Shown: piece after piece, positions 18,812 to 31,190 of the stretch
Position numbering within the stretch: position 1 is the stretch's first letter
Layout: each line of letters begins with the position of its first letter
Assembly (NCBI GenBank): GCA_044869275.1
Contig: JBIOXB010000059.1
Location: 1 to 31,285, forward strand
Length of the DNA stretch: 31,285 nucleotides
Direction: 5' to 3'
Source: a bacterium
Lineage (GTDB): Bacteria; Zhuqueibacterota; Zhuqueibacteria; Zhuqueibacterales; Zhuqueibacteraceae
Position numbers and translations under genes: made by a program
Notes under the pieces: generated by a model
Told to the model about the DNA's origin: nothing
What the model saw: only the letters and a program-made list of their open reading frames with translations
Databases searched by the model: none

Positions 18812-19249
18812 CTAAAGCATCCCGCGATATTTGGAACGTTTCATATCCTTCGCCATCTCCGCAATATTTCTGCTCTTCAGCATATCGTTAATTCCCTCGC
18901 GCAACTCCGACCATTTTTGATGAAGCGCGCACGCGTTTTTGTCCGAACATGACGGAAAACCCAGTACGCACGCCTGCACGAATTCGTTGCCGTCAATGGC
19001 TTCAACAATATGGAATAATGTAATCTCGCCTGCCGGCTTCGCCAGTTTAAAGCCCCCGGCCCTCCCCTTGGATGAAGCGAGCAGTTTTTGATGCGTGAGA
19101 TGCTGAAGGATTTTTGCCAAAAAAGGCGATGGCACCTCCACTTTACTGGCGAGCTCGGTAATCGAGGTCACGGCCTCGGCCGGTTTCGAAGCGAGATAGA
19201 GGACGGCCTGCAAAGCGTATTCACACTGCCGGCTGAAGATGATGCTCAT
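18812..19249 (-). CDS. Rrf2-family transcriptional regulator with three Fe-S-ligand-type cysteines
   Basis: CEYALQA, SPFLAKILQ, SKGRAGGFKLAKP, IVEAIDG, CVLGFPSCSDKNAC. Confidence 0.92.
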   Translation of the reverse strand: MSIIFSRQCEYALQAVLYLASKPAEAVTSITELASKVEVPSPFLAKILQHLTHQKLLASSKGRAGGFKLAKPAGEITLFHIVEAIDGNEFVQACVLGFPSCSDKNACALHQKWSELREGINDMLKSRNIAEMAKDMKRSKYRGML

Positions 19250-19439
19250 GTATTCTTGTCCCTGTGTGATTATGACGTACGAGCTTAACCTTCCGAGGCC
19301 CCAATGAAATTCCAAAGCACAAGGCTCAAATTATTCTCAAGGATGGAAATCCGTTCCCAAATCTGAGAAAGGCATCTCCCGATTCTTTGCAATCTTGAGA
19401 AACTGCGGTCGCTTAAAACAACGAATTTTTGGCTAAGTC

Positions 19440-19463
19440 AAATAAGATAAAAAAGTCCGATTT
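19440..19463. promoter_or_regulatory. Candidate Rrf2 operator (imperfect inverted repeat)
   Basis: AAATAAGAT-AAAAAA-GTCCGATTT (6/9 symmetric) in the AT-rich divergent intergenic region. Confidence 0.35.
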
Positions 19464-19518
19464 AGGCATGGTAATTGTATCTCCACAAATCGTACCAAAA
19501 CAGACAAATCGGAGTCTT

Positions 19519-21420
19519 ATGTCTGAAAAATATCATATCCAGATTCCTGATCTTGAGTTTTGGCAAAATCTCGTCCCCTGCCAAATGGGCTGCCCGATTC
19601 GCACGGATGCGGGCAGGTATGTGCAGCTCATCGCGGAAGGACGATATGAAGAAGCCTACCTGACGGCGCGGTCTCCCAATCCCTTTGCCAGCGTGTGCGG
19701 ACGCGTGTGTGCGGCGCCCTGTGAAGATCGCTGCCGCCGCGGCAAGATCGATGCGCCGGTGAGCATTCGTGCGCTCAAACGCTTCGTGACCGAAAAGTAC
19801 GGCGTGGAATCGCTCGCGCCGGACCAACAAGACGAATTGTTCGCCGGCAGAAATGAACCGGGGAATAAATGGCGCGGCCATCTGCCCGTGCAGATTCAGT
19901 CGCGCAAAAGTAGCGTCAAGAACAAAAAAGTCGCCGTCATCGGCTCGGGGCCAGCCGGACTTTCATGTGCGCACGATCTCGCCTTGATGGGTTATCAAGT
20001 GACAGTGTTCGAAGCGACGAATGTGGCGGGCGGCATGTTGCGCCATGGCATTCCGGAATATCGGCTTACGCGCAGTTTGATTGATAAAGAAATTGACAAA
20101 ATAAAGTCGCTCGGCGTCGAGGTGCACTACCTCACGCCGCTCGGTGAGAGTTTCGGCCTCGCCGAGCTGCGGCAGCAAGGCTTTGAGTCTATCTTCGTTT
20201 CCGTGGGAACCCAGAAAGGCCGCGATCTCAACCTCGAAGGTGTGCAGCTCGACGGCGTCATTAAAGCCATCGATTACTTGATCAACATCAACAACGGCTA
20301 CCGCGTCAATCTTGGCAAAAAAGTGCTGGTCATTGGCGGCGGCTTCGTCGCGTTTGATGCCGCGCGCATGGCGTTGCGCGGCGGGCCCGAGCCTGAAACG
20401 GCCTCGCTGCATGAAGCCGTCGATGCTGCGCGCGCCGCGGTGCGCGGTGGCGCCTCGGAAGTGCACATCGCCAGCCTGGAGTCGTTTGAAGAAATGCCGG
20501 TGTTGCGCAGCGCACAAGGGCATGAGGAGTTTGAGGAAGCGAGGCATGAAGGCATCGTCTTCCATCCGCAGCGCGGACCGAAGCGCTTCATTGGCGAAAA
20601 CGGCAAAGTCAAAGCGGTCGAGTTCCTCGGCGTCAAGCGCACCTATGATGAGAATGGCCGCTTCAATCCCGTTTACGACGCAAGCTATTCCGAGATTTTT
20701 GAAACCGATTCCGTCGTGCTCGCGATTGGCCAGCAAGCGGACTTATCCTTCATCAAACCCTCCGACGGTGTCGAGCTCACGCCGGGCAAGTTCATCAAAG
20801 TGGAGGCCGAAACGTTGGCGACCACCGCGCCGGGAATTTTTGCCGGCGGCGACGTTGCCTTCGGCCCGCGCAATATTATCGACGCCGTGGCCAACGGCAA
20901 GCGCGCGGCGCTATCGATGGATGAATATCTTCGGGGCGTGAAGTCTCGCACCTTTTTTGAGCTCGCCGTGGAGAAAATCCCCACGCGGCGTTTCACGCGA
21001 CCGGAGGATTTCGAGCAACACCAGCGCCAAGCACCGCCCACGATCGATCTGCAACGCCGCACCGGGATTTCAGAAGTCGAGCAAGGCTACAACGAGGAGC
21101 AGGCGCGGCGCCAGGCGGAGCGCTGCTTGTCGTGCCACATTCAAACCATCTACGACGCAGAAAAATGTGTGCTGTGTAACCGCTGCGTGGACATCTGTCC
21201 GGAGTATTGCTTGAAGCTCGTGCCCCTGGCGCATTTGGAGGTCGAAGAAGCAACCAAAAGCAAACTGCTGCAGCAATACCATCTCGACCCATTCCAGCCG
21301 GTCTCGGCGATGCTGAAGGATGACGACACCTGCATTCGCTGCGGCTTGTGCGCCATGCGCTGCCCGACGGACGCGATGACGATGGAGGTGTTTTATTATG
21401 AGCAGAAAGAAGTGGCCTAG
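19519..21420 (+). CDS. GltD/DsrL/NfnB-like FAD-dependent NAD(P)H oxidoreductase with C-terminal 2[4Fe-4S] ferredoxin domain
   Basis: GGAG RBS; PCQMGCP, CGRVCAAPCEDRC, IGSGPAG, GIPEYRL, IGGGFVAFD, FAGGD, RCLSC, CVLCNRCVDICP, CIRCGLCAMRCP. Confidence 0.9.
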   Translation: MSEKYHIQIPDLEFWQNLVPCQMGCPIRTDAGRYVQLIAEGRYEEAYLTARSPNPFASVCGRVCAAPCEDRCRRGKIDAPVSIRALKRFVTEKYGVESLAPDQQDELFAGRNEPGNKWRGHLPVQIQSRKSSVKNKKVAVIGSGPAGLSCAHDLALMGYQVTVFEATNVAGGMLRHGIPEYRLTRSLIDKEIDKIKSLGVEVHYLTPLGESFGLAELRQQGFESIFVSVGTQKGRDLNLEGVQLDGVIKAIDYLININNGYRVNLGKKVLVIGGGFVAFDAARMALRGGPEPETASLHEAVDAARAAVRGGASEVHIASLESFEEMPVLRSAQGHEEFEEARHEGIVFHPQRGPKRFIGENGKVKAVEFLGVKRTYDENGRFNPVYDASYSEIFETDSVVLAIGQQADLSFIKPSDGVELTPGKFIKVEAETLATTAPGIFAGGDVAFGPRNIIDAVANGKRAALSMDEYLRGVKSRTFFELAVEKIPTRRFTRPEDFEQHQRQAPPTIDLQRRTGISEVEQGYNEEQARRQAERCLSCHIQTIYDAEKCVLCNRCVDICPEYCLKLVPLAHLEVEEATKSKLLQQYHLDPFQPVSAMLKDDDTCIRCGLCAMRCPTDAMTMEVFYYEQKEVA

Positions 21421-21425
21421 GGGGA

Positions 21426-21501
21426 AAGGCATAGCGCATAGCGCATAGCGCTTAGCGCAGAGGGCGAGCGAAAGGGTGAAGGGCAAGGAGCGAAGGACGA
21501 A
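21426..21501. repeat. Heptamer array AGCGCAT, degenerating 3'
   Basis: aaggcat agcgcat agcgcat agcgctt agcgcag. Confidence 0.8.
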
Positions 21502-21511
21502 TTAACCAAGT

Positions 21512-22072
21512 ATGCGTGAAATGAAAATTTTCAAAAAGAGTGATTCGAAAATTCCGGCGAAATCGAATGGTGTACAATCGGAGACACGCCGTTCGTTTTT
21601 GCAGAATCTCGGGCTCGGCAGTATGCTGGCGGGACTGGCCGGCTTCGGCTTTCAGTCGTTGCGCGCGCTGATCCCGAATGTCCTGTATGAGCCCTCGCAG
21701 AGGTTCAAAGTCGGCTTGCCCTCCCAGGTTGCCGAAGGCATGACGTTTCTGGAAGACCAGCGCATTTATGTTTTTAAGGAAGGAAAGTCCTTTTATGCGA
21801 TCTCGGGGGCGTGCACGCATTTGGGTTGCACGGTGAAATACACCAAGCTCAATCAGCCCAAGCAAGTCGAAATTGGCGGCGAGAAAAAGAACATTCCGTT
21901 TGAATTTCATTGTCCGTGTCACGGCTCGAAATTCTATGCCGACGGCACGCATTACGCCGGCCCCGCTCCGCGTCCATTACACTGGTACAAACTGGAAGTC
22001 GCGCCGGATGACGGGCAGTTGATCGTGGACATGGACACCGAGGTCGAACAGAATTTTCGATTGACGGTGTAG
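21512..22072 (+). CDS. Rieske [2Fe-2S] subunit of a Rieske/cytochrome b complex
   Basis: Tat motif TRRSFL plus TM helix; CTHLGC, CPCHGSKF, GPAPRPL. Confidence 0.95.
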   Translation: MREMKIFKKSDSKIPAKSNGVQSETRRSFLQNLGLGSMLAGLAGFGFQSLRALIPNVLYEPSQRFKVGLPSQVAEGMTFLEDQRIYVFKEGKSFYAISGACTHLGCTVKYTKLNQPKQVEIGGEKKNIPFEFHCPCHGSKFYADGTHYAGPAPRPLHWYKLEVAPDDGQLIVDMDTEVEQNFRLTV

Positions 22073-22083
22073 AAGGGAAGGAC

Positions 22084-22210
22084 GGATGGATTGGTGGATT
22101 ATTGGATTATTGGAGTGGTGGAGTGATGCAGCCAAGCAACCCAACATTCCAGCGCCGCATCATTTCAACACTCCAATACTCCACCAATTCAGTAATCCAC
22201 CAATCCAATC
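22084..22210. repeat. Octamer array TGGA(G/T)TRN with inverted counterpart
   Basis: tggattgg tggattat tggattat tggagtgg tggagtga ... cactccaatactcca..taatccaccaatcca. Confidence 0.8.
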
Positions 22211-22216
22211 TTACGG

Positions 22217-23554
22217 ATGGAGCTGCGCATGCCTGTCATAGAATCATCAAAAAAGCTCTTCGATAAACTCACCTGGACGTGGAGGCCCGGCAGTGATAAA
22301 GAGGCCGGCGATGCCATCGTCAAAAACTTACTGCTGCACTGGTTTCCGAACAAGATCAGCAAGGCCAGTCTGTCGTGGAATTATTCGATGTGGCTCGGGA
22401 CAATCGCGTTTGTCCTGTTCATGATTCTTGTCTTCACCGGCGTGATCTTGATGTTTCTCTACGTACCCTCTGTGGAACGGGCCTATGCCTCGGTGAAGGA
22501 CATCGAGTTTGTGATCTCGTTCGGCTGGTTGATGCGCGCTGTGCACCGCATCGCCGCGCACCTGATGGTGGCGGTGGTGTTTCTGCACATGGTGCGTGTT
22601 TTTCTGACCGGCGCTTATAGAAACGGAAGCGCAGCCGGCGCCAATCGCCCGCTCAATTGGATTATAGGTCTCGTCCTACTGATCACGACGCTTTTGCTTT
22701 CTTTCACCGGTTACCTGTTGCCCTGGGATCAACTGGCTTACTGGGCCATCACCGTGGGCACGAACATTGCCAGCTCTGCGCCGCTCATAGGTGCAGCCAC
22801 GCGCTTTTTCTTGCTCGGGGGAAACACCATCGATCAGAACGCATTAATTCGGTTTTACGTGCTACACGTTTTCTTTCTGCCGATGATCGTGCTGTTCCTA
22901 TTTTCCTATCACCTGTGGCGTGTGCGCAAAGACGGCGGGCTCGCGGTGACGGATCGCGAAGCATTGGAACAAAAACCGGAACAGGTCGCACCGGTCAAAT
23001 CCAAGACTTATTCTTTGCTCGGCCTCACCAATGGCACGAGCGTGCACGTGCAGAACACGATGGTGGATGAAGAGAAAAACACAGTGCCTGCTTCGCCCCA
23101 CCTGTTGCGACGCATTTGGGTGGTGACATTGCTCACGTTTGTAGCAACGGTGGTGCTGTCGTTTGTCTTTCGCGCGCCATTGGAAGCGCCGGCCAATCCC
23201 GCGGTCACGCCCAACCCTGCAAAAGCGCCCTGGTATTTTCTGTGGCTGCAGGAAATTGTGACGATCTCGACGATCAAAATCGGCCCATTCACCATCAACG
23301 GCGCGCTGATCGGCGGGATTCTGTTGCCAGGCTTGCTGTTGGGATTAGCGGTGTGGTGGCCTTATCGCGACAAGTCGAGTCTCAAGGCAGTGGGTGTCTG
23401 GTTCGCTGCGGAGCGCAAGAAGCAAAACATGATTTTTATCGCCATCTGTCTATTGATTGTTCTGTTCACGGTGATCGGCACATTCCTGCGCGGGCCGTAC
23501 TGGAATCTCTACTGGCCCTGGGAAGCGTGGCCGGAGATGCCGGTGAAGTTCTAA
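22217..23554 (+). CDS. Cytochrome b (b6-like domain fused to subunit IV-like domain)
   Basis: TGVILMFLYVPS, HRIAAHLMVAVVFLH, FTGYLLPWDQLAYWA, RFYVLH...YH, NPAKAPWYF. Confidence 0.95.
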   Translation: MELRMPVIESSKKLFDKLTWTWRPGSDKEAGDAIVKNLLLHWFPNKISKASLSWNYSMWLGTIAFVLFMILVFTGVILMFLYVPSVERAYASVKDIEFVISFGWLMRAVHRIAAHLMVAVVFLHMVRVFLTGAYRNGSAAGANRPLNWIIGLVLLITTLLLSFTGYLLPWDQLAYWAITVGTNIASSAPLIGAATRFFLLGGNTIDQNALIRFYVLHVFFLPMIVLFLFSYHLWRVRKDGGLAVTDREALEQKPEQVAPVKSKTYSLLGLTNGTSVHVQNTMVDEEKNTVPASPHLLRRIWVVTLLTFVATVVLSFVFRAPLEAPANPAVTPNPAKAPWYFLWLQEIVTISTIKIGPFTINGALIGGILLPGLLLGLAVWWPYRDKSSLKAVGVWFAAERKKQNMIFIAICLLIVLFTVIGTFLRGPYWNLYWPWEAWPEMPVKF

Positions 23555-23562
23555 CAACGGAA

Positions 23563-23692
23563 GGTTGGCGGGTGGATTGACAAGGTATTCGATCGATGGA
23601 GTATTGGAGAATTGGAGTGATGGATTGATGGAAGGGTGGATTGTTGAAGAATTCAAGCATCGATAGTTCCAATAATCCACCACTCCAACATC
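23563..23692. repeat. Octamer array with inverted counterpart (same family as 22084-22210)
   Basis: tggagtat tggagaat tggagtga tggattga ... ccaataatccaccactccaa. Confidence 0.75.
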
Positions 23693-23707
23693 CCCGAGGG
23701 CAAATAC

Positions 23708-24922
23708 ATGGACCACAAAACCACAAAAGACAAGCTGACCTTCGTGAAAAAAGACCAAGTCCTCCTGAGCGTAATGGGAATCGGCCTGCTCCTGCTGAGC
23801 GGATTCATCTTCTATGCGTCCCTCACGCCGGAGTGGTCGGCGTATCAATCTGAGTTTCGCGACTTCGCCAAAGAAAAGTTCGGCCCGGAACGTGCGGCCG
23901 CGGTTCCGCAAGGCTTGCAGCAGGTTTTTGTCAAGGAATTGGACAAGACCGATCGCTGCGTGACCTGTCATCAAGGCGTTGAGTGGAAAGGCTTGGAGAG
24001 CGCTCCGCAGCCGTTCCGTACTCATCCTCAAGAGATTTTGCAAAAGCATCCCATTGCGAAATTCGGCTGCACCAGTTGCCACGCGGGACAAGGATATGCC
24101 ACGAATATCGAGCAGGCACACGGCCTGGTCGAACATTGGGAGGAGCCGCTGCTCGGTAAAGAGCTGGCCGACTTTTATGTGTTGAGCGACAAGAAGGCGC
24201 TGATGCAAATGAATTGCAATACGTGCCATCGTTACGACAAGGAGACCAAGGGAGCAGGCTACATCAATCGCGCCAAACAATTGGTGACCGAAAAGGGCTG
24301 TCGCGCGTGCCACGTGATCAACGCGCGCGGCGGCACCGTGGGGCCGGACCTGACCAAGGCGGGGGGCAAATCGCCGGAGCAATTCAATTACGAACGCATC
24401 AAAGGCTTTCATTCCGAATTCTCCTGGCAAGTGGCGCATCTGAAAAACCCCAAAGAGCTGGTGCCGGAAACCGTGATGCCGAATTTCAATTTCTCCAGCA
24501 TGGACGCGCAGGCGCTCGCGATGCTGGTGATGAGCTGGAAGAAGATCGACGTTCCCATCGCGTACATTCCCAATCATAACTTCCGCGATCTCCCGTCACC
24601 GGAAGAGATCCAGAAAGAGCAAAAGATGACGCAGGGCCCCGGCGCATTCTTCGTGAAAAAGAATTGTTTCGTCTGCCATTCGGTGTCCACACTCGGCATC
24701 GACGCCGCCGCGCAAATCGGCCCAGACCTGGCTTTGGCGGTGCAGGATGTGCAATCACGCTTCGGCAGAACACTGGATGATTTCCTTGCTCGCCCAACTG
24801 GTACGATGGAGGTGGTGCTATCCACCATGATTACATTGACCGAGGAAGAACGAAAAGAGGCGATTGCGAAATTACGCTATGCTTTTGAATTGAAGCAGCA
24901 GCAAGCTCAGGGTGAGAAGTGA
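23708..24922 (+). CDS. Membrane-anchored pentahaem cytochrome c
   Basis: N-terminal TM helix; five CxxCH motifs: CVTCH, CTSCH, CNTCH, CRACH, CFVCH; GPDL motifs and MPNF distal Met. Confidence 0.93.
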   Translation: MDHKTTKDKLTFVKKDQVLLSVMGIGLLLLSGFIFYASLTPEWSAYQSEFRDFAKEKFGPERAAAVPQGLQQVFVKELDKTDRCVTCHQGVEWKGLESAPQPFRTHPQEILQKHPIAKFGCTSCHAGQGYATNIEQAHGLVEHWEEPLLGKELADFYVLSDKKALMQMNCNTCHRYDKETKGAGYINRAKQLVTEKGCRACHVINARGGTVGPDLTKAGGKSPEQFNYERIKGFHSEFSWQVAHLKNPKELVPETVMPNFNFSSMDAQALAMLVMSWKKIDVPIAYIPNHNFRDLPSPEEIQKEQKMTQGPGAFFVKKNCFVCHSVSTLGIDAAAQIGPDLALAVQDVQSRFGRTLDDFLARPTGTMEVVLSTMITLTEEERKEAIAKLRYAFELKQQQAQGEK

Positions 24923-24960
24923 AACGTGAGACGTGGGATGTGAGACGTAAAGCGTAAGGT
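24912..24960. repeat. Heptamer array GTGAGAC (7 units) overlapping the cytochrome c stop codon
   Basis: gtgagaa gtgaaac gtgagac gtgggat gtgagac gtaaagc gtaaggt. Confidence 0.85.
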
Positions 24961-25005
24961 CCGAAGGTAGGGAAGGCGTCAAAGTTTGAGTCGAGGGCTT
25001 GAATA

Positions 25006-25467
25006 ATGAGACGTGATCGCCGATTCAACGATGCACGAGATCGAAGCGCCAGGAGGCAGGGAGTGGCATGGCTGGCGCTTTGCCTGGCTTTGGGTGTCCA
25101 CGTAGCCGATGAAGCGCTCACGGACTTTTTATCGGTTTATAATACTGCGGTGCAAGCCATACGAGCGAAGATCCCTTACTTGCCTTTGCCAAGCTTTACC
25201 CTTGACGTTTGGCTGGCCGGTTTGATTTTCGGGATCATGCTCTTGTTCTCACTCACTCCGTTTGTCTTCCGGGGATCGAGGTGGATGGCGCCCTTATCGT
25301 ATGTGTTTGGCGCCCTCATGCTAGGGAACGGCCTGCTACATATTGCTGGCTCTATCTACAGCGCACGGCTCATGCCGGGAGTCTATTCTGCACCGTTGTT
25401 AGTGGGATGTTCCGTCTCTCTTTTGGTATGTACCCGCAAACACAGGAAACCGGTTTTGGCAACTTGA
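25006..25467 (+). CDS. HXXEE-like four-TM membrane protein
   Basis: LGVHVADEA, GNGLLH, MPGVYSAPLL. Confidence 0.7.
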   Translation: MRRDRRFNDARDRSARRQGVAWLALCLALGVHVADEALTDFLSVYNTAVQAIRAKIPYLPLPSFTLDVWLAGLIFGIMLLFSLTPFVFRGSRWMAPLSYVFGALMLGNGLLHIAGSIYSARLMPGVYSAPLLVGCSVSLLVCTRKHRKPVLAT

Positions 25468-25578
25468 ACCAAATCAAAATCGATTAATTCGTTTAACACT
25501 TCCCGCGAGGCCCTGCTTGATTGAATGAGAGAAGCTAGGCGGCCGGGGAGCCATAACTCAAAAGAGGAGTGAAGCACC

Positions 25579-27414
25579 ATGCGAGTGAAGCTTTTTCTTC
25601 TGGTAGGTCTGGTCGCGGCGCTCGGCGCCGGCTGTGGCGGGGGCGAGAAAAGAGCGCGGCAGGGCGTGCGCTCGGACGTGCAAGAGGCGGCGCTCAAAAG
25701 CTACGTTGCCCCCGGTGATCTGGATGAATACTATATTTTCAAATCCGGCGGCCACTCTGGCCAGGTTTACATTTATGGCATTCCCTCCATGCGGCACCTC
25801 GCCACCATTCCGGTGTTCACGCCGTATCCGGCTACCGGTTATGGCTTCGATAAGGAAAGCAAGGAGATGCTCGGTGGCTTTGCCTGGGGCGACGCGCACC
25901 ATCCTTCCATCAGCGAGACCAACGGTGATTACGATGGCCGCTGGCTGTTCATCTCCGACAATGCCAACAATCGCATGGCACGCATTGATCTGCGCGACTT
26001 CAAGACCAAGGAAATTCTGGGGCCGATCGCGAATGTCTCCGGTAATCATTGCTCGTCATTCGTGACAGAAAACACCGAATACGTGCTCGCCGGCTCGCGT
26101 TTTTCGATTCCGCTGCCCAAGGGCACCTATGAAAAAATCGAGGACTATGCGACGAAATTCAAGGGCATCGTGGCCGGCATCGCGGTGGATTCACAGTCCG
26201 GCAAGATGTCGCTCGGCTGGCAGGTACTGATGCCGCCGTTCAATTATGATCTCGGCGACGCGGGCAAAGGTCCGAGCGCGGAATGGGGCTTCTGGACATG
26301 CTACAATAGCGAGCGCGCCACCGGCAAGCTCGAAGTTACTTCCGCGCAGAACGACCGTGATTACGTCGCGGCGGTAAATTGGAAGGCCGCTGAGAAAGCC
26401 ATTGCCGAGGGTAAATTCAAAATGCTCGGCGGCGTGAAAGTGATCGATCCCAAAGATGCCGAAGGTGTGGTTTATCTCCTGCCCGCCGCGAAGTCGCCGC
26501 ACGGCGTGGACGTGAGCCCGGATGGCAAGTACATCATTGCCAGCGGCAAGCTGCAGAGCATTACGACGGTGTTCAACATCGAAAAAGTCTTGACCGCGAT
26601 TCAGAACAAGGATTTTACTGGCAATGAAGACGGCATTCCCGTGCTCAACTATGACAGCGTCAAAGATGCGGAAGTGAACGTCGGGCTCGGCCCGTTGCAC
26701 ACGCAGTTCGACGATAAAGGCTTTGCCTATACTTCGCTCTTCGTCGAAAGCGCCGTGGCCAAGTGGAAGCTGGGCACGTGGGAGTTGGTGGACAAGATTC
26801 CGATCTCCTACAACATCGGCCATCTTACTGCTGCCGAAGGCGATACCAAGAGCCCAGACGGCAAATACTTGGTGGCGTTGAACAAGCTCTCGCATGGCCG
26901 GCACCTGAGTGTTGGCCCTTCGCAGCCGGAAGCGTCGCAGCTCATCGACATCAGCGGCGAGAAGATGGCGCTGCTGTACGATGCCTTTACCGAGCCGGAG
27001 CCGCATTATGCGCAAATCATCAAAGCGGATAAACTGCATCCTATCGAAGTTTATCCCAAAGAAGAGAACAAGCATCCCCACGCCATTTGGGACCTCAAGG
27101 ACGCCAAGATCGTGCGCAACGGCAAAAACGTCGAGGTTTATATGATGGCGGTGCGCTCCAGCTTCGAGCCCTGGAACATCGAAGTGAATAAAGGCGACAA
27201 GGTCACCATCTATCTCACCAACATCGAGCAAACCACGGACGAGCTGCACGGCTTCGGCTTGAACGAATACAACATCAATATCGTCGCCGACCCGGGCGAA
27301 ACCAAAGTGATTGAATTCATTGCCGACAAGCCCGGCGTGTTCCCGTTCTATTGCACGAACTTCTGCTCAGCGTTGCATCAGGAGATGCAGGGGTATTTGC
27401 TGGTGAAGTCGTGA
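25579..27414 (+). CDS. nosZ: Clade II (Sec-dependent) nitrous oxide reductase, predicted lipoprotein
   Basis: GAGGAG RBS; lipobox-like LGAGC and no twin arginine; YVAPGDLDEYY, SGGHSG; CuZ His in DAHH, GNH, SPHG, GPLH, IGH, EPH; CuA ELHG and CTNFCSALHQEM. Confidence 0.97.
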   Translation: MRVKLFLLVGLVAALGAGCGGGEKRARQGVRSDVQEAALKSYVAPGDLDEYYIFKSGGHSGQVYIYGIPSMRHLATIPVFTPYPATGYGFDKESKEMLGGFAWGDAHHPSISETNGDYDGRWLFISDNANNRMARIDLRDFKTKEILGPIANVSGNHCSSFVTENTEYVLAGSRFSIPLPKGTYEKIEDYATKFKGIVAGIAVDSQSGKMSLGWQVLMPPFNYDLGDAGKGPSAEWGFWTCYNSERATGKLEVTSAQNDRDYVAAVNWKAAEKAIAEGKFKMLGGVKVIDPKDAEGVVYLLPAAKSPHGVDVSPDGKYIIASGKLQSITTVFNIEKVLTAIQNKDFTGNEDGIPVLNYDSVKDAEVNVGLGPLHTQFDDKGFAYTSLFVESAVAKWKLGTWELVDKIPISYNIGHLTAAEGDTKSPDGKYLVALNKLSHGRHLSVGPSQPEASQLIDISGEKMALLYDAFTEPEPHYAQIIKADKLHPIEVYPKEENKHPHAIWDLKDAKIVRNGKNVEVYMMAVRSSFEPWNIEVNKGDKVTIYLTNIEQTTDELHGFGLNEYNINIVADPGETKVIEFIADKPGVFPFYCTNFCSALHQEMQGYLLVKS

Positions 27415-27440
27415 GGCAAATGGGCATATAGTGTAGATAT

Positions 27441-27501
27441 TACACGTTACACCTTACACGTTACACGTGTGAAGTGTAACGTGTAAAGTGTAAGGTGTGT
27501 A
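27441..27501. repeat. Heptamer array TACACGT x4 abutting its inverted array
   Basis: tacacgt tacacct tacacgt tacacgt gtgaagt gtaacgt gtaaagt gtaaggt. Confidence 0.85.
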
Positions 27502-27505
27502 CCAT

Positions 27506-28144
27506 ATGCAAAAGTACATCGAAAAAGCCAACTCCTTCTTTGAGACGCCAATTGATCTGCGCAGTCGCGCCTTGATTCTCGTCGCAGCGGTCATGTTGCT
27601 GCCGAGTTACTTCTCTCCGCTCTGGAATTTGAAGTTGTACTCGAATCAATTTCCGGAAGGATTGGTGTTGAAGATTTATTCGTACAAGCTCGCCGGCGGG
27701 CGGAGCGAGTACCGCGACGACTTGAAAGAGATCAACGCGCTCAATCATTACATTGGCATGCGCGAACTGAAGGAAGATGATTTTACGGAATTCAAGTGGA
27801 TCCCGTTCGTCATTGGTGGCGTCATTTTGCTGTCGTTGCGCGTTGTGGTGCTCGGCAAAATGTCGAAGCTCGTTGATTTGTTCGTCTTGTTCACTTACTT
27901 CGGATTGTTCTCGCTGTGGAGTTTTTACCATAAGCTGCATCTCTATGGCCACGAGCTCGACCCGACTGCCGCCGTCAAGGTGGCACCGTTTACACCGCCG
28001 ATCATCGGCCATCATACGCTGGCCAACTTCGAAGTCTACAGCTATCCACACGTCGGATCCTATTTCATGGCCGCCGCGCCGCTCTTTTGGCTCGCGGCCA
28101 TGTGGCTGTCAAGAAAGGCGTGGCAAAACGCCAAGAGCGTTTAG
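27506..28144 (+). CDS. nosB: Clade II nos accessory membrane protein NosB
   Basis: PLW..L...QFPEGL, INALNHYIGM, LYGHELDPTA, FTPPIIG...LANF...SYP; position directly after nosZ. Confidence 0.88.
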   Translation: MQKYIEKANSFFETPIDLRSRALILVAAVMLLPSYFSPLWNLKLYSNQFPEGLVLKIYSYKLAGGRSEYRDDLKEINALNHYIGMRELKEDDFTEFKWIPFVIGGVILLSLRVVVLGKMSKLVDLFVLFTYFGLFSLWSFYHKLHLYGHELDPTAAVKVAPFTPPIIGHHTLANFEVYSYPHVGSYFMAAAPLFWLAAMWLSRKAWQNAKSV

Positions 28145-28153
28145 TTGAAAACC

Positions 28154-28249
28154 GGAGTTCTGGCGATTGGATTGGTGGAGTGATGGAGTTCTGGAGTAAT
28201 AGAGTAATGGAGAACTCATCACTCTATTACTCCGCCACTCCAGTACTCC
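28154..28249. repeat. Octamer array with inverted counterpart
   Basis: tggattgg tggagtga tggagttc tggagtaa tagagtaa tggag ... cactctattactccgccactccagtactcc. Confidence 0.8.
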
Positions 28250-28302
28250 TCGTACCAAACCGTAGTTTTCGAACCGGACGTTATTCACCAGCGTTGCATG
28301 CT

Positions 28303-30369
28303 ATGCGAATTCCATCTCCCATCATTCCGAAAGAGCACGGCGCATGGGCCGTGTTGTTTGTGCCGATGATTATCGGCGCAAGCGTGGCCGGCCGGTTCGA
28401 CACCAACGCCTGGTATCTCGCGTTCTCGGTGCTGGGCGGTTTTTTGAGTTATATGCCCGTGCAAACGATTCTGCGCCAATTGTTCGTCGCACCACAGGGA
28501 AAGGAAAAACTGCGAGCGGCAATGTTTTGGGCGGCGGTCTACTTCGGCCTCAGCGCACTTTTTGCCGTTCCGCTCTTCCTCCAGAATTTTTGGCTGCTTG
28601 GGAGCATGGGGTTGGCAGCAGCAGTCGCATTTTTCGGAAATTTTATTTTAGTGCGCCAGTATGCCAAAAGCATTTGGAGTGATCTCGTTTCAGTACTGGG
28701 GTTGACATTGGGGGCGCCGGGCGCGTATTACGTTACCACTGGAAAACTCGATCAGACCGCGGCGCTGCTGTGGCTGCTGAATTTTCTTTTCTTTGGCAGC
28801 GGCATTGTTTACGTGCATATGAAGCTGCGCGCCTCGGCAATGAAAAAATCCGAGCTGTCCCTCGCCGAAAAACTCGGCTTGGGAAAAATGAACCTGATTT
28901 ATCACTTTTTCGTGTTTATAATCGTTGGTATTCTCGTTATCAAAAACTTCACACCATGGCTGGCGATGGCGGCGTTTGTACCGATGACGCTTCATGCGAT
29001 TTATGGCACGTTCAAGCTCTCGCACGCCGTACGCTTCAGGAATTTGGGATTGATTTTGCTGGCGCAAGCGCTCGCCTTTGCGCTTTTTTGTGTGATCGGC
29101 GCTGCGCTCATTTTTGCACCAGCCGGCGAAGCGCAATCATCGACGCCGGCGATACCCCATCACAATGGGCGCAAGAGTTTCAATGACATCGATTTGCAGA
29201 GGCTCATCAATACGGCGCAATGCGGCGACACAATTTTCGTCCCTGCCGGCCTTTATGAGGGTAATCTCGTCGTCGACAAAAAGCTCGTGCTCATCGGAAG
29301 AGATTGGCCGGTGATTCGCGGCAATGGCAGCGGCAGCGCGGTTGTCATTGCCGCTGATTCCTGCACGTTCAAAGGCTTTGTGGTCGAGCATTGCGGGAGA
29401 ATGCTGGTTCAAGAGGATTCCGGCGTACTGCTCAAATCGCATGGCAACGTGGTGGAGGGGAATCATCTGCGCGATGTTCTGTTCGGGATCTACCTGCTGC
29501 AAGCCAATGGCAACGTGGTGAGAGACAACCGTATCGCTGGCCGCAAAGAGCTGGAGTTAGGGGAGAGGGGCAGTGGCGTTCACCTCTGGAATGCGCAGCG
29601 CAATCGTTTCATCGGCAACGTAATCACCGATAGCCGAGATGGGTTTTATATTCAGAACGCGAATCACACCTATCTTGAACGCAACGAAGCGTTTGGCTTG
29701 CGTTACGGCGTGCACTACATGTATGCCGACTCCAATGTTTTTCTGCAAAACAGATTTTACGACAACGTTGCCGGTGCGGCGATTATGTACTCGCGCGGCA
29801 TCGTGATGCGGCACAATAGTTTCGTGCGCAATCGTGGCTTCGCCTCGTTCGGCATTCTCTTTCAAGATTGCCACAATTCCGTTGCCGACTCCAATATCAT
29901 TGCCGACAACGTCGTCGGCATGTTCTTTGAAGCCTCCACCGACAATCACTTTCGGCATAATATCATCGCACGGAATGACATCGCCTTGCAGATGTTTCAG
30001 AACTCCGAGCGCAACACCTTCGCTGAGAACAATTTCATCGACAACTTGAACCCGCTCTCTTTGGTTGGCAAACGGACACGGACGCATTGGCACCAGAGCG
30101 GCAGGGGCAACTACTGGAGCGCATACGACGGCTACGATCTCGATCATGACGGCGTCGGCGATATTCCAATGAAGATTCAAAACGCATTCGATTATCTCGA
30201 GGGCCAGCATCCGAATCTGCGCTTGTATCTTTACAGCCCAGCGGCGCAAGCGCTGGCGGTGGCCGCGAAGGCTTTTCCGATTATTGAGATCAATCAGGAA
30301 GTGGATGATTATCCCTTGATGAGGCCTATTCATCTTCAAAGAATTATACTAACGGATAAGAAGCTCTAA
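28303..30369 (+). CDS. nosD: Fusion of a YwiC-like membrane domain and NosD copper-maturation protein
   Basis: N-terminal PKEHGAW and about 8-9 TM segments. From about 29190 a beta-helix domain: GDTIFVPAGLYEGNLVVDK, RDGFY, LRYGVHYMY, GAAIMYS, GNYWSAYDGYDLDHDGVGDIP, D.YPLMRP. Confidence 0.88.
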   Translation: MRIPSPIIPKEHGAWAVLFVPMIIGASVAGRFDTNAWYLAFSVLGGFLSYMPVQTILRQLFVAPQGKEKLRAAMFWAAVYFGLSALFAVPLFLQNFWLLGSMGLAAAVAFFGNFILVRQYAKSIWSDLVSVLGLTLGAPGAYYVTTGKLDQTAALLWLLNFLFFGSGIVYVHMKLRASAMKKSELSLAEKLGLGKMNLIYHFFVFIIVGILVIKNFTPWLAMAAFVPMTLHAIYGTFKLSHAVRFRNLGLILLAQALAFALFCVIGAALIFAPAGEAQSSTPAIPHHNGRKSFNDIDLQRLINTAQCGDTIFVPAGLYEGNLVVDKKLVLIGRDWPVIRGNGSGSAVVIAADSCTFKGFVVEHCGRMLVQEDSGVLLKSHGNVVEGNHLRDVLFGIYLLQANGNVVRDNRIAGRKELELGERGSGVHLWNAQRNRFIGNVITDSRDGFYIQNANHTYLERNEAFGLRYGVHYMYADSNVFLQNRFYDNVAGAAIMYSRGIVMRHNSFVRNRGFASFGILFQDCHNSVADSNIIADNVVGMFFEASTDNHFRHNIIARNDIALQMFQNSERNTFAENNFIDNLNPLSLVGKRTRTHWHQSGRGNYWSAYDGYDLDHDGVGDIPMKIQNAFDYLEGQHPNLRLYLYSPAAQALAVAAKAFPIIEINQEVDDYPLMRPIHLQRIILTDKKL

Positions 30370-30432
30370 ATCCAAAATCCAAAACTCAAAATTTCAATCT
30401 AATTTTGGATTTTTTGCTTAGAGTTTTGTGCT
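30368..30432. repeat. Degenerate heptamer array AAATCCA with inverted counterpart
   Basis: aaatcca aaatcca aaactca aaatttc ... ttttggatt. Confidence 0.6.
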
Positions 30433-30467
30433 TCCTACTTGTCCGGAATATGCCAGATCGAATCATC

Positions 30468-31190
30468 ATGATCCATGTCGAACATTTCACCAAGCGCTAT
30501 GGCAAATTCACCGCCGTCAATGATGTCTCGTTCGAGGTAGAACGCGGTGAGGTCTTTGCCTTTCTCGGCCCTAACGGCAGCGGCAAGACCACGACGATGA
30601 AAGCCATGGTGGGATTGAATGTGCCGACCACGGGCCGCATCCTCATTAACGGCATTGATGTACGCCGGCAGCCGAAGGAAGCGAAACGCTTTGTGAGCTA
30701 TTTACCGCAGCGGGTGGTGTTTCCCGAGAATCTGACGGCGCGGGAAGTGCTGCGCTTTTACGACCGCGTGCGTAAAGTGCCGAAAGCGCTGGCAGACGAA
30801 GCGCTGGCGCGCGCCAATTTCAACGGTTTTTCCGACAAAGCGGTGAGCGAATTCTCCGGCGGCATGGTGCAGCGCTTGGGGCTCGCGGTTGCTGCCATGC
30901 CAGATGCTCCAGTTTTGTTGCTTGACGAACCGACAGCGAATCTCGATCCGCAGGGCGTGAAGCGATTTCGTGAATTTATTTTGGAGCAAAAGCAAAGGGG
31001 CAAGACCATCATCTTCTCAACCCATTTGCTCACCGAAGCCGAGCAACTGGCCGATCGCGTGGGTATTTTTGTGGGCGGCAAGTTGGTGGCGCAGGAAGCG
31101 GTCGAAAATCTGCGCCAAACGTTCTTGGCGAACGGCACGATTGAGGATATGTATCTGCATTATGTCGGCAACGATCAACATGCTGAGTGA
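30468..31190 (+). CDS. nosF: ABC ATP-binding protein NosF
   Basis: GPNGSGKTT, YLPQ, FPENLT, FSGGMVQR, LLLDEPT, STH; follows nosD. Alternative start at 30450. Confidence 0.85.
   Translation: MIHVEHFTKRYGKFTAVNDVSFEVERGEVFAFLGPNGSGKTTTMKAMVGLNVPTTGRILINGIDVRRQPKEAKRFVSYLPQRVVFPENLTAREVLRFYDRVRKVPKALADEALARANFNGFSDKAVSEFSGGMVQRLGLAVAAMPDAPVLLLDEPTANLDPQGVKRFREFILEQKQRGKTIIFSTHLLTEAEQLADRVGIFVGGKLVAQEAVENLRQTFLANGTIEDMYLHYVGNDQHAE

Follow-up and report, generated by a model that had tools for sequence, protein, structure and literature searches.

How is a clade II nitrous oxide (N2O) reductase supplied with electrons when NosGH is lacking? Both this electron source and the seemingly higher charge separation of the clade II NosZ pathway are stated as open in the available portions of two papers (PMC11168931, PMC13685413). 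The question is raised by contig JBIOXB010000059.1 of the Zhuqueibacteraceae assembly GCA_044869275.1, a complete contig of 31,285 nt (here the window) from a host genome of 6.67 Mb that is 94% complete. Ten genes of its nos locus were verified in the order and orientation described earlier, i.e., rrf2 on the minus strand followed by nine plus-strand genes from a flavoprotein gene to nosF (Table 1). Open reading frames (ORFs) and family models thereby confirmed the co-directional run flavoprotein-Rieske-cytochrome b-pentahaem cytochrome c-HXXEE-nosZ-nosB-ywiC::nosD-nosF, with divergent rrf2, that had been reported in an earlier note on this DNA and read there as a dedicated, energy-conserving complex serving NosZ. 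Our data show that the block formed by the flavoprotein, Rieske, cytochrome b and cytochrome c genes is tied to nosZ far beyond chance. Its products would probably constitute a NosZ-dedicated complex with a nicotinamide adenine dinucleotide [NAD(H)] arm on haem bH; that this arm works in the direction of NAD+ reduction is our tentative preference.

With nine aligned flavoproteins as the query, a GTDB scan gave at least 600 matches, of which 577 were confirmed, and the best 80 loci were taken for synteny analysis. The full order flavoprotein-Rieske-cytochrome b-cytochrome c-nosZ was found in 43 of these 80, consistent with the linkage in relatives on which the earlier reading depended. Leaving aside 26 loci with less than 4.5 kb of downstream sequence, nosZ was present in 41/41 loci at a flavoprotein identity of at least 53% and in 0/13 below it, the threshold having been read off the data afterwards. 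The 43 loci are labelled Bacteroidota, Chlorobi, Ignavibacteriota, Acidobacteriota, Myxococcota (Anaeromyxobacter), Planctomycetota, Kryptoniota, Zixiibacteriota, KSB1, and Acidimicrobiia; about ten phylum-level labels thus keep the order and spacing of the block at 53 to 87% identity. In a tree of 87 rows (85 different), all 51 nos-linked rows fall in one 70-row clade (Shimodaira-Hasegawa-like approximate likelihood ratio test, 100), which also holds three rows labelled non-nos (G016, L086, and L129; G, C, and L numbers are our handles for genomes, contigs, and loci). The flavoprotein gene also precedes Rieske-cytochrome b in the same order in 12/13 non-nos loci, L128 having a different order.

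Within the host family, a cytochrome b of 84 to 87% identity occurs in 14/18 genomes and nosZ likewise in 14/18, both counts taking in the unpublished genomes G001 and G014. The block is contiguous to nosZ in G002, G003, G006, G009, G011, G012, G050 (twice), and G036, and several other family contigs break within the block. The nearest named flavoprotein relatives (85%) are labelled candidate division KSB1. In G050, one contig (L057, G050:C73) has two facing flavoprotein-Rieske-cytochrome b operons, one nos-linked with a long cytochrome b and the other with a split cytochrome b and an octahaem cytochrome; the second nos-linked copy of this genome is L056.

The same linkage is seen when counted from the nosZ side. 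Even samples were drawn from the phylum of the L082 genome (120 genomes), the phylum of the L123 genome (100), and the class of the L070 genome (60), in which 17, 20, and 23 genomes, respectively, bore nosZ besides the centres. Sixty-one nosZ loci were taken and, with 11 having less than 5.3 kb upstream, 50 were readable; the block marks 18 of these, 17 whole and 1 in part. At a nosZ identity of at least 64%, it was found in 17/17 loci (16 whole, L196 partial), and among the other readable loci in 1/33, with two truncated contigs showing parts. Four nosZ loci of the sister family are without it. In the NosZ tree, where one wrong-frame row (L116_z, absent from the test set below) was ignored, the block marks one 67-row clade plus a separate three-row lineage (L201, L204, and L215). 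Joining the two block-bearing groups was rejected by an approximately unbiased test on 32 rows (p 8e-65), the group having been named after the tree was seen. The cytochromes b beside the second, distant NosZ lineage nest within the nos-linked cytochrome b clade, and the block therefore kept its place when nosZ changed. The locus counts are given without a p-value; the loci are connected by kinship and horizontal transfer and are not independent. The gene order is conserved, not local, and the block is functionally tied to nosZ. As a separate observation, three loci (L188, L189, and L190, in G216, G250, and G208) carry two tandem divergent nosZ-like genes with 38 to 42% and 30 to 32% identity to the window NosZ.

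The reductase of the window is of the Sec-type (clade II), scoring well above the TIGR04246 cut-off of 625 bits (Table 1) and 493 bits with TIGR04244. It has a lipoprotein-type signal (LGAGC), in agreement with the membrane tethering proposed earlier; in its relatives a lipobox was counted in 14/44 sequences, a count left unused as start picks are uncertain. The clade II accessory set is matched by nosD and nosF in the window and by the 3′ end of nosY, which opens contig C212 with 79% identity to a relative's nosY. In relatives nosL and nosY come after nosF (nosL is present in G002), and nosL and most of nosY have therefore been lost in an assembly gap. Beyond nosY, C212 holds a 151-aa cytochrome stub (C212:44556-45011), all that remains of a cytochrome there, and then benzoyl-CoA-pathway-like genes. 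A NosL candidate on C223 was discarded, being a weak match (E 1e-3) in a metal-efflux region. The membrane protein directly behind nosZ, in the nosB position, is conserved across loci and matches no family model. YwiC::NosD is a single ORF of 684 to 705 aa in nine family relatives; ywiC and nosD are two separate genes in several Ignavibacteria/Bacteroidota loci.

Neither nosR nor nosG/nosH is present in the window, as stated earlier, and none was found genome-wide. No napG (NosG) and no NosR flavin mononucleotide (FMN) domain were found in the genome, and napH-like matches peak at 43 of the 213 bits required. Given the 94% completeness, NosGH and NosR are described here as not found rather than absent. 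That nosGH might lie just beyond the window and supply the electrons, a possibility raised in the earlier note, was looked into: in 37 kb of C212 (8000-45305), the probable continuation of the operon, no ORF has a CxxCxxCxxxC motif, and this option was rejected. Rejected as well was membership of clade I, the NosZ being Sec-type and the NosR FMN domain not found. Nor does the locus qualify as a Wolinella-type NosGH cluster, for which both nosG and nosH would be needed. Complex I is present in the genome (two nuoC above cut-off), futalosine-type radical S-adenosylmethionine genes point to menaquinone, and no Rnf match exceeded the cut-off.

Databases call the flavoprotein merely glutamate synthase beta-like or formate dehydrogenase beta. 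Its N- and C-terminal 2[4Fe-4S] domains flank the flavin adenine dinucleotide (FAD) and NAD(P) domains as in DsrL, no transmembrane segment is predicted, and the best fold matches of its model (predicted local distance difference test [pLDDT] 86.7) are Nfn-ABC/StnC. Its single CxxCH was considered as a haem site and rejected, being part of a cluster-binding Cys pair. Lys87 aligns with StnC K170, where NfnB has Glu, and is Lys in 50/50 rows. The Arg matching NfnB R201 is retained in 50/50 (PEYRL/PEFRL/PGYRL), as it is in StnC, a correspondence read from sequence, not from geometry. StnC is non-bifurcating according to the available part of its description (PMC10482914), and with the same Lys cluster ligand here, ferredoxin reduction through flavin bifurcation appears unlikely. 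In the NADP motif, LE replaces RR in 62/62 rows (SLE instead of YRR in the window protein). The accessible text on DsrL-1 gives the same pattern as NAD(H)-type and DsrL-1A as biased toward NAD+ reduction (PMC7596348). NADP(H) was accordingly rejected as the nucleotide: YRR is missing and the LE pattern fits NAD(H). From these residues the flavoprotein would be of the NAD(H) type, with flavin bifurcation, NADP, and ferredoxin all unlikely, and the earlier suggestion of ferredoxin or NADP+ as the cytoplasmic acceptor was not supported. Any bifurcation present would be of the ordinary quinol (Qo) kind. No dsr genes were found among the 28 window proteins scanned, the genome not having been searched for dsrAB. 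Elsewhere in the genome, a NuoEF fusion next to a GltD/NuoG-like gene (L013, G000:C160:11100-15100) resembles an Stn/Nfn-ABC-type transhydrogenase.

The cytochrome b fold agrees with that of bc1 cytochrome b. Its four haem His are invariant in 62/62 rows and the Qo motif APWY (KAPWYF) is present in 51/51. In place of CxGG, 50/51 rows (the remaining one truncated) have W/YLG[TS], WLGT in the window protein. All 51 rows have HxWRxxKDG after helix D, with no His at what we take to be the place of the bc1 Qi histidine. A canonical quinone-reducing site, whether haem cn or a bc1-type His, is thus missing as judged from the alignment; the model (pLDDT 75, Qo loop below 50) does not resolve the Qi pocket. 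The Rieske signature is S-Y in 29, S-F in 19, and unreadable in 1 of 49 rows, signatures that the part of PMC4122944 available associates with mid-plus to high potentials. Five CxxCH motifs were found in 48/49 cytochrome c rows, the odd row being the octahaem paralogue of the same locus. Additional His and Met residues are conserved in this cytochrome, which we infer to have three haems with conserved His partners and two class-I-like domains with conserved Met. A structure-sequence search gave no close solved relative of it. Three other cytochrome b loci were noted in the genome (L009, L010, and L011, at G000:C117, C191, and C100); large multihaem cytochromes, with as many as 19 CxxCH, accompany two of them, and one adjoins a QrcB-like gene.

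The multimer prediction proposed earlier gave weak support for a contact between the flavoprotein (residues 3-626) and cytochrome b (residues 14-388). The pair scored 0.59, compared with 0.00 for the best control. The mark for support was reached by 116/157 solved and 2/215 mismatched pairs, but at 0.60 or below by only 18 solved pairs and both mismatches. The prediction runs share at least 91% of contacts, with partner pLDDT at least 77, and no solved complex of such a pair was among the sequence-search matches. Charge complementarity between basic cytoplasmic loops of cytochrome b and the acidic ferredoxin domain was too weak and was not counted.

These elements can be assembled into a scheme in which the four gene products form one membrane complex dedicated to this NosZ subclade, replacing NosGH or NosR. 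Menaquinol would give up its electrons at Qo, on the periplasmic side of cytochrome b. The first electron would pass to the Rieske cluster, the pentahaem cytochrome, and then the CuA of the membrane-tethered NosZ. The second would cross the membrane via haems bL and bH and, without returning to quinone at Qi, enter the docked flavoprotein at its C-terminal 2[4Fe-4S] domain, to be passed through FAD to NAD+. The resulting NADH would be re-oxidised by complex I, and the very high N2O/N2 potential would therefore buy added proton pumping. We infer the single complex, the haem route to NosZ, the missing Qi site, and the direction. The NAD+ direction is favoured because there is no recognisable quinone-reducing site, the Rieske protein is of a mid-plus to high type, the nucleotide site is NAD-type, complex I is present, and the anammox complexes offer a precedent. 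The reading of the earlier note is thus supported in part, by the linkage to nosZ, the failure to find nosGH beyond the window, the lipoprotein signal, and the weakly predicted flavoprotein-cytochrome b contact, and is not supported with respect to NADP and ferredoxin.

Several observations weigh against this scheme. In L086 the flavoprotein gene has no Rieske gene behind it, and L129, inside the nos-linked clade, has the block but no nosZ. In G016 an insertion of about 19 kb, which carries benzoyl-CoA genes and a dimethyl sulfoxide (DMSO)-reductase type II enzyme, separates the cytochrome b gene from the pentahaem gene, the latter remaining with nosZ. In the unpublished G001 (99% complete), the contig runs out where the block does, and the query used retrieved no nosZ. 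The host genome holds the three other cytochrome b genes noted above, and six Ignavibacteria/Bacteroidota loci have a NapH-like Fer4_5 protein a few genes upstream. The missing canonical Qi residues may be compatible with a non-canonical n-side quinone site. As to energetics (with assumed potentials), the Rieske step of a Qo split toward NAD+ gives only -8 to -12 kJ per quinol, which becomes about +2 to +6 kJ once one charge crosses 150 mV; the Rieske chain must be kept highly oxidised by the N2O sink (-114 kJ overall). The hosts, moreover, look heterotrophic, with NADH to spend.

This near-equilibrium Rieske step in NADH-rich hosts makes a close rival of the same complex run in reverse. NADH would pass electrons through the flavoprotein and haem bH to menaquinone at a non-canonical n-side site, the quinol then being oxidised at Qo, giving an NADH:NosZ redox loop. 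All linkage and contact evidence fits it equally, the StnC and NfnA-type subunits, whose folds are the nearest solved ones, serve as inputs that oxidise NAD(P)H, and the reaction from NADH to N2O amounts to -323 kJ per two electrons (potentials again assumed). Such proteins are also interpreted as membrane-anchored dehydrogenases in the portion of PMC5600118 available. However, this direction needs an n-side quinone site, and neither a haem cn motif nor the His after helix D is present. With no such site, outward electrons from NADH would dissipate the membrane potential, and complex I is already encoded in the genome. On balance we regard the reverse direction as rather unlikely, if a serious contender.

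Three further alternatives are less likely. The Rieske, cytochrome b, and cytochrome c proteins could form a plain quinol:NosZ oxidoreductase, with the flavoprotein as an accessory, non-respiratory reductant (for CuZ activation or copper/Fe-S handling, a NosR-like maintenance). NosR and NosGH were not found here and, in the available text of PMC13685413, NosR is proposed to keep NosZ active; the contact to cytochrome b is weak, and L086 retains the flavoprotein without a Rieske gene. We nevertheless think this improbable, as the flavoprotein travels with cytochrome b rather than with nosZ in the non-nos loci (L128 apart in its order) and stayed with Rieske-cytochrome b when the G016 locus split. 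Nfn-like FAD bifurcation, the strongest form of the earlier reading, in which the N2O chain would pay for the reduction of ferredoxin or NADP+, would draw on the NfnB-like fold and the Arg kept in all 50 rows. It is made very improbable by the proximal-cluster Lys, shared with a StnC that keeps the same Arg and is non-bifurcating, by the missing YRR, and by an operon without an NfnA-like or HydBC-like partner. The slightest chance of all we give to hitchhiking, in which the true donor or acceptor of the block would be a different one and the block would merely have been transferred together with nosZ on a single island. The loci are non-independent, sister modules adjoin other enzymes (arsenite-oxidase-like, octahaem cytochromes), and L129 and G001 are exceptions; against this stand the order and spacing held over some ten phylum labels, the second NosZ lineage occupying the same place, and the pentahaem gene that stuck to nosZ in G016.

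The features of the locus are collected in Table 1. The likely gene starts were refined to 19519 (flavoprotein, in agreement with database entry P0001), 27506, 28303, 30468, and 19249 (rrf2). The HXXEE gene, which lies within the run, proved to be a local insertion with no match in any locus examined; absent from 80/80 related loci, it was rejected as a member of the module, and its inclusion in the conserved block had to be given up. The regulator is only loosely linked, an rrf2 gene occurring in 16/80 related loci. In six loci (L070:4080-6093, L066, L067, L075, L086, and L192), a trio of rrf2, NapH-like Fer4_5, and methyltransferase genes stands ahead of the flavoprotein gene, with no NosG partner seen.

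Table 1. Genes and repeats of the nos locus in the 31,285-nt window
Feature	Coordinates	Strand	Evidence or remark
Rrf2-family regulator, three Cys, divergent	18812..19249	-	PF02082 E 4.5e-32
Cytoplasmic FAD / 4x[4Fe-4S] oxidoreductase, DsrL/StnC-like layout, 633 aa	19519..21420	+	PF07992, PF14691, Fer4
Tat-exported Rieske protein	21512..22072	+	PF00355; RRSFL twin-arginine motif; CTHLGC, CPCHGSKF; S-F signature
Long cytochrome b, b6 part fused to subunit IV, 445 aa	22217..23554	+	PF00033
Membrane-anchored pentahaem cytochrome c	23708..24922	+	5 CxxCH
HXXEE membrane protein	25006..25467	+	PF13787, 25.3 bits, barely above cut-off
Clade II (Sec) NosZ, lipoprotein-type signal	25579..27414	+	TIGR04246 908.5 bits
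nosB	27506..28144	+	Assigned from its place and its resemblance to the gene that follows nosZ in relatives; family models silent
YwiC::NosD fusion	28303..30369	+	PF14256 and TIGR04247
nosF ABC ATPase	30468..31190	+	Assigned by position
Imperfect palindrome, 8-bp units, Rieske-cytochrome b spacer	22079..22208	.	Similar at 23565-23690, 28152-28262
Perfect 31-nt inverted repeat, contig end	31224..31285	.	Likely assembly artefact

The spacers at 22079-22208, 23565-23690, 27440-27498, and 28152-28262 are filled by imperfect palindromes of 7- to 8-bp units. TGGA-N4-type palindrome arrays number 128 in the genome and are thus a genome-wide repeat, not specific to the module. A terminal hairpin is found at 1/510 contig ends of the genome. 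Promoter and terminator scans gave numbers at shuffle level (8 versus 7.8 and 22 versus 17.1). RNA runs for Anaeromyxobacter L123 contain merely 5 to 8% of its sequence words; four libraries gave short contigs of mostly less than 95% likeness, few over gene junctions and none across the block, with DNA carry-over possible.

Several related arrangements were recorded on the way. Directly behind an arsenite-oxidase-like operon (TIGR02693 and TIGR02694 above cut-off), L059 (G036:C52) and L060 (G046:C42) carry a sister block of flavoprotein, Rieske, cytochrome b, and pentahaem genes, with a dihaem peroxidase-like gene in front; the enzyme may be Aio or an iodate-reductase-like one. In a Verrucomicrobiota-labelled sister clade (L126, L130, L135, L138, and L139) the cytochrome c of the block is replaced by a hexahaem one, and nosZ is lacking. 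Benzoyl-CoA pathway genes and an operon for a DMSO-reductase type II enzyme, one subunit of which is a dihaem EbdC-like cytochrome, recur beside or inside family nos clusters (L045 and L143 [G016:C61], L046, L047, L048, and L049); the stub on C212 is what the genome of the window retains of this cytochrome behind nosY. In most family loci a gene with an FGE-sulfatase domain follows nosY, and in four a DUF4920 gene lies between nosZ and nosB (L044:3231-4421, L044:10133-10660, and equivalents for both).

The association with nosZ gives a probable function to a cytochrome b clade published as of unknown function, and the block can serve as a marker for a type of N2O sink, i.e., of greenhouse-gas removal. 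One of its carriers, Anaeromyxobacter sp. PSR-1 (L123), belongs to a cultured genus. The block opens a way to study in culture the bc complexes with a flavoprotein, which have until now been considered chiefly in anammox bacteria. It is possible, if speculative, that a Qi-less bc complex is a third widespread supply for NosZ, running a "super Q-cycle" with complex I that would give more charge separation per N2O. The subclade so served would include Anaeromyxobacter, many Acidobacteriota, Ignavibacteria, and KSB1, and the cassette would also have been reused with different periplasmic enzymes. According to the accessible text of PMC11168931, evidence is mounting that clade II achieves more charge separation than clade I. 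In what is available of PMC13685413 and PMC11539149, the only routes given for clade II are NosGH and bc1/cytochrome c.

As to known systems, the window cytochrome b matches clade G′ of subfamily G in its long form, WLGT, four His (HHHH), and P-WY, an assignment bridged by the Kryptonia row L090 of the nos-linked clade, which agrees nearly letter for letter with the printed G′ alignment, the G′ accessions themselves being absent from our cytochrome b tree. In the accessible portion of PMC5600118, clade G′ comprises long cytochromes b (WLGT, P-WY; Kryptonia, Acidobacteria OLB17) in "large conserved operons" of unknown function, and subfamily G cytochromes b accompany large NAD(P)-binding oxidoreductases. 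Clade G′ was thus published without a function, whereas the operon here is tied to nosZ. The searchable text and supplements of that paper contain none of nitrous, nosZ, or N2O, and its operon-figure legend lists no Nos domain but includes PF00116, also matched by NosZ. The APWY clade, defined with none characterised and with a reverse Q cycle proposed in Geobacter, includes Anaeromyxobacter sp. K in its table, and "nitrous" is absent from the searched text and supplement (PMC4122944, available portions). The anammox bc-2/bc-3 complexes (subfamily G) share with the block an operon-borne flavo-Fe-S oxidoreductase, a multihaem cytochrome, P-WY, and a proposed quinol-driven NAD(P)+ reduction, the same scheme being set out in the part of bioRxiv 855817 available. 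They have a short cytochrome b with separate subunit IV and CMGG/CLGG, whereas here it is fused, with WLGT and no haem cn motif, and the chain ends on NosZ; the comparison was made from printed alignment rows, the anammox sequences being outside our trees. The likeness to an anammox-type complex drawn in the earlier note therefore does not extend to the cytochrome b.

With Wolinella-type clade II clusters the locus shares a Sec-type NosZ, nosB, and nosDFLY and differs by NosG/H, not found here. The GltD domain of StnC/NfnA (Nfn-ABC) and NfnB have the same fold and cluster layout as the window flavoprotein, with the Lys ligand as in StnC, and DsrL-1 has the same NAD-type triplet and C-terminal ferredoxin domain; the window protein, in contrast, stands alone at 633 aa without YRR and, instead of HydBC, NfnA, or DsrAB, has a membrane cytochrome b as its predicted partner. 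Rieske and cytochrome b genes were reportedly shown in the Anaeromyxobacter cluster by Sanford 2012 and by Hein and Simon 2019, and the link of the block to nosZ may therefore have been stated in part before. Our full-text literature search, outside which several key reviews lie, found no paper tying the flavoprotein-bc block to NosZ, and the accessible text of the A. dehalogenans genome paper (PMC2330069) mentions none of nosZ, nitrous, and Rieske. Only alternative complex III is listed for the type strain of I. album in the available text (PMC3362086), whereas the metagenome-assembled genome labelled I. album (L070) carries the block. In a paper that includes A. dehalogenans, the legend to published clade II nos maps assigns symbols to Rieske genes, to those of b- and c-type cytochromes, and to Fe-S genes (PMC11096178, Fig. 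5 legend); the neighbourhood itself is therefore already in print, and their "Fe-S" gene is here an NAD-type flavoenzyme. The parts and the gene map are thus known, and what is new is the proposed assignment of clade G′ to the electron supply of one NosZ subclade, together with residue-level limits on its mechanism.

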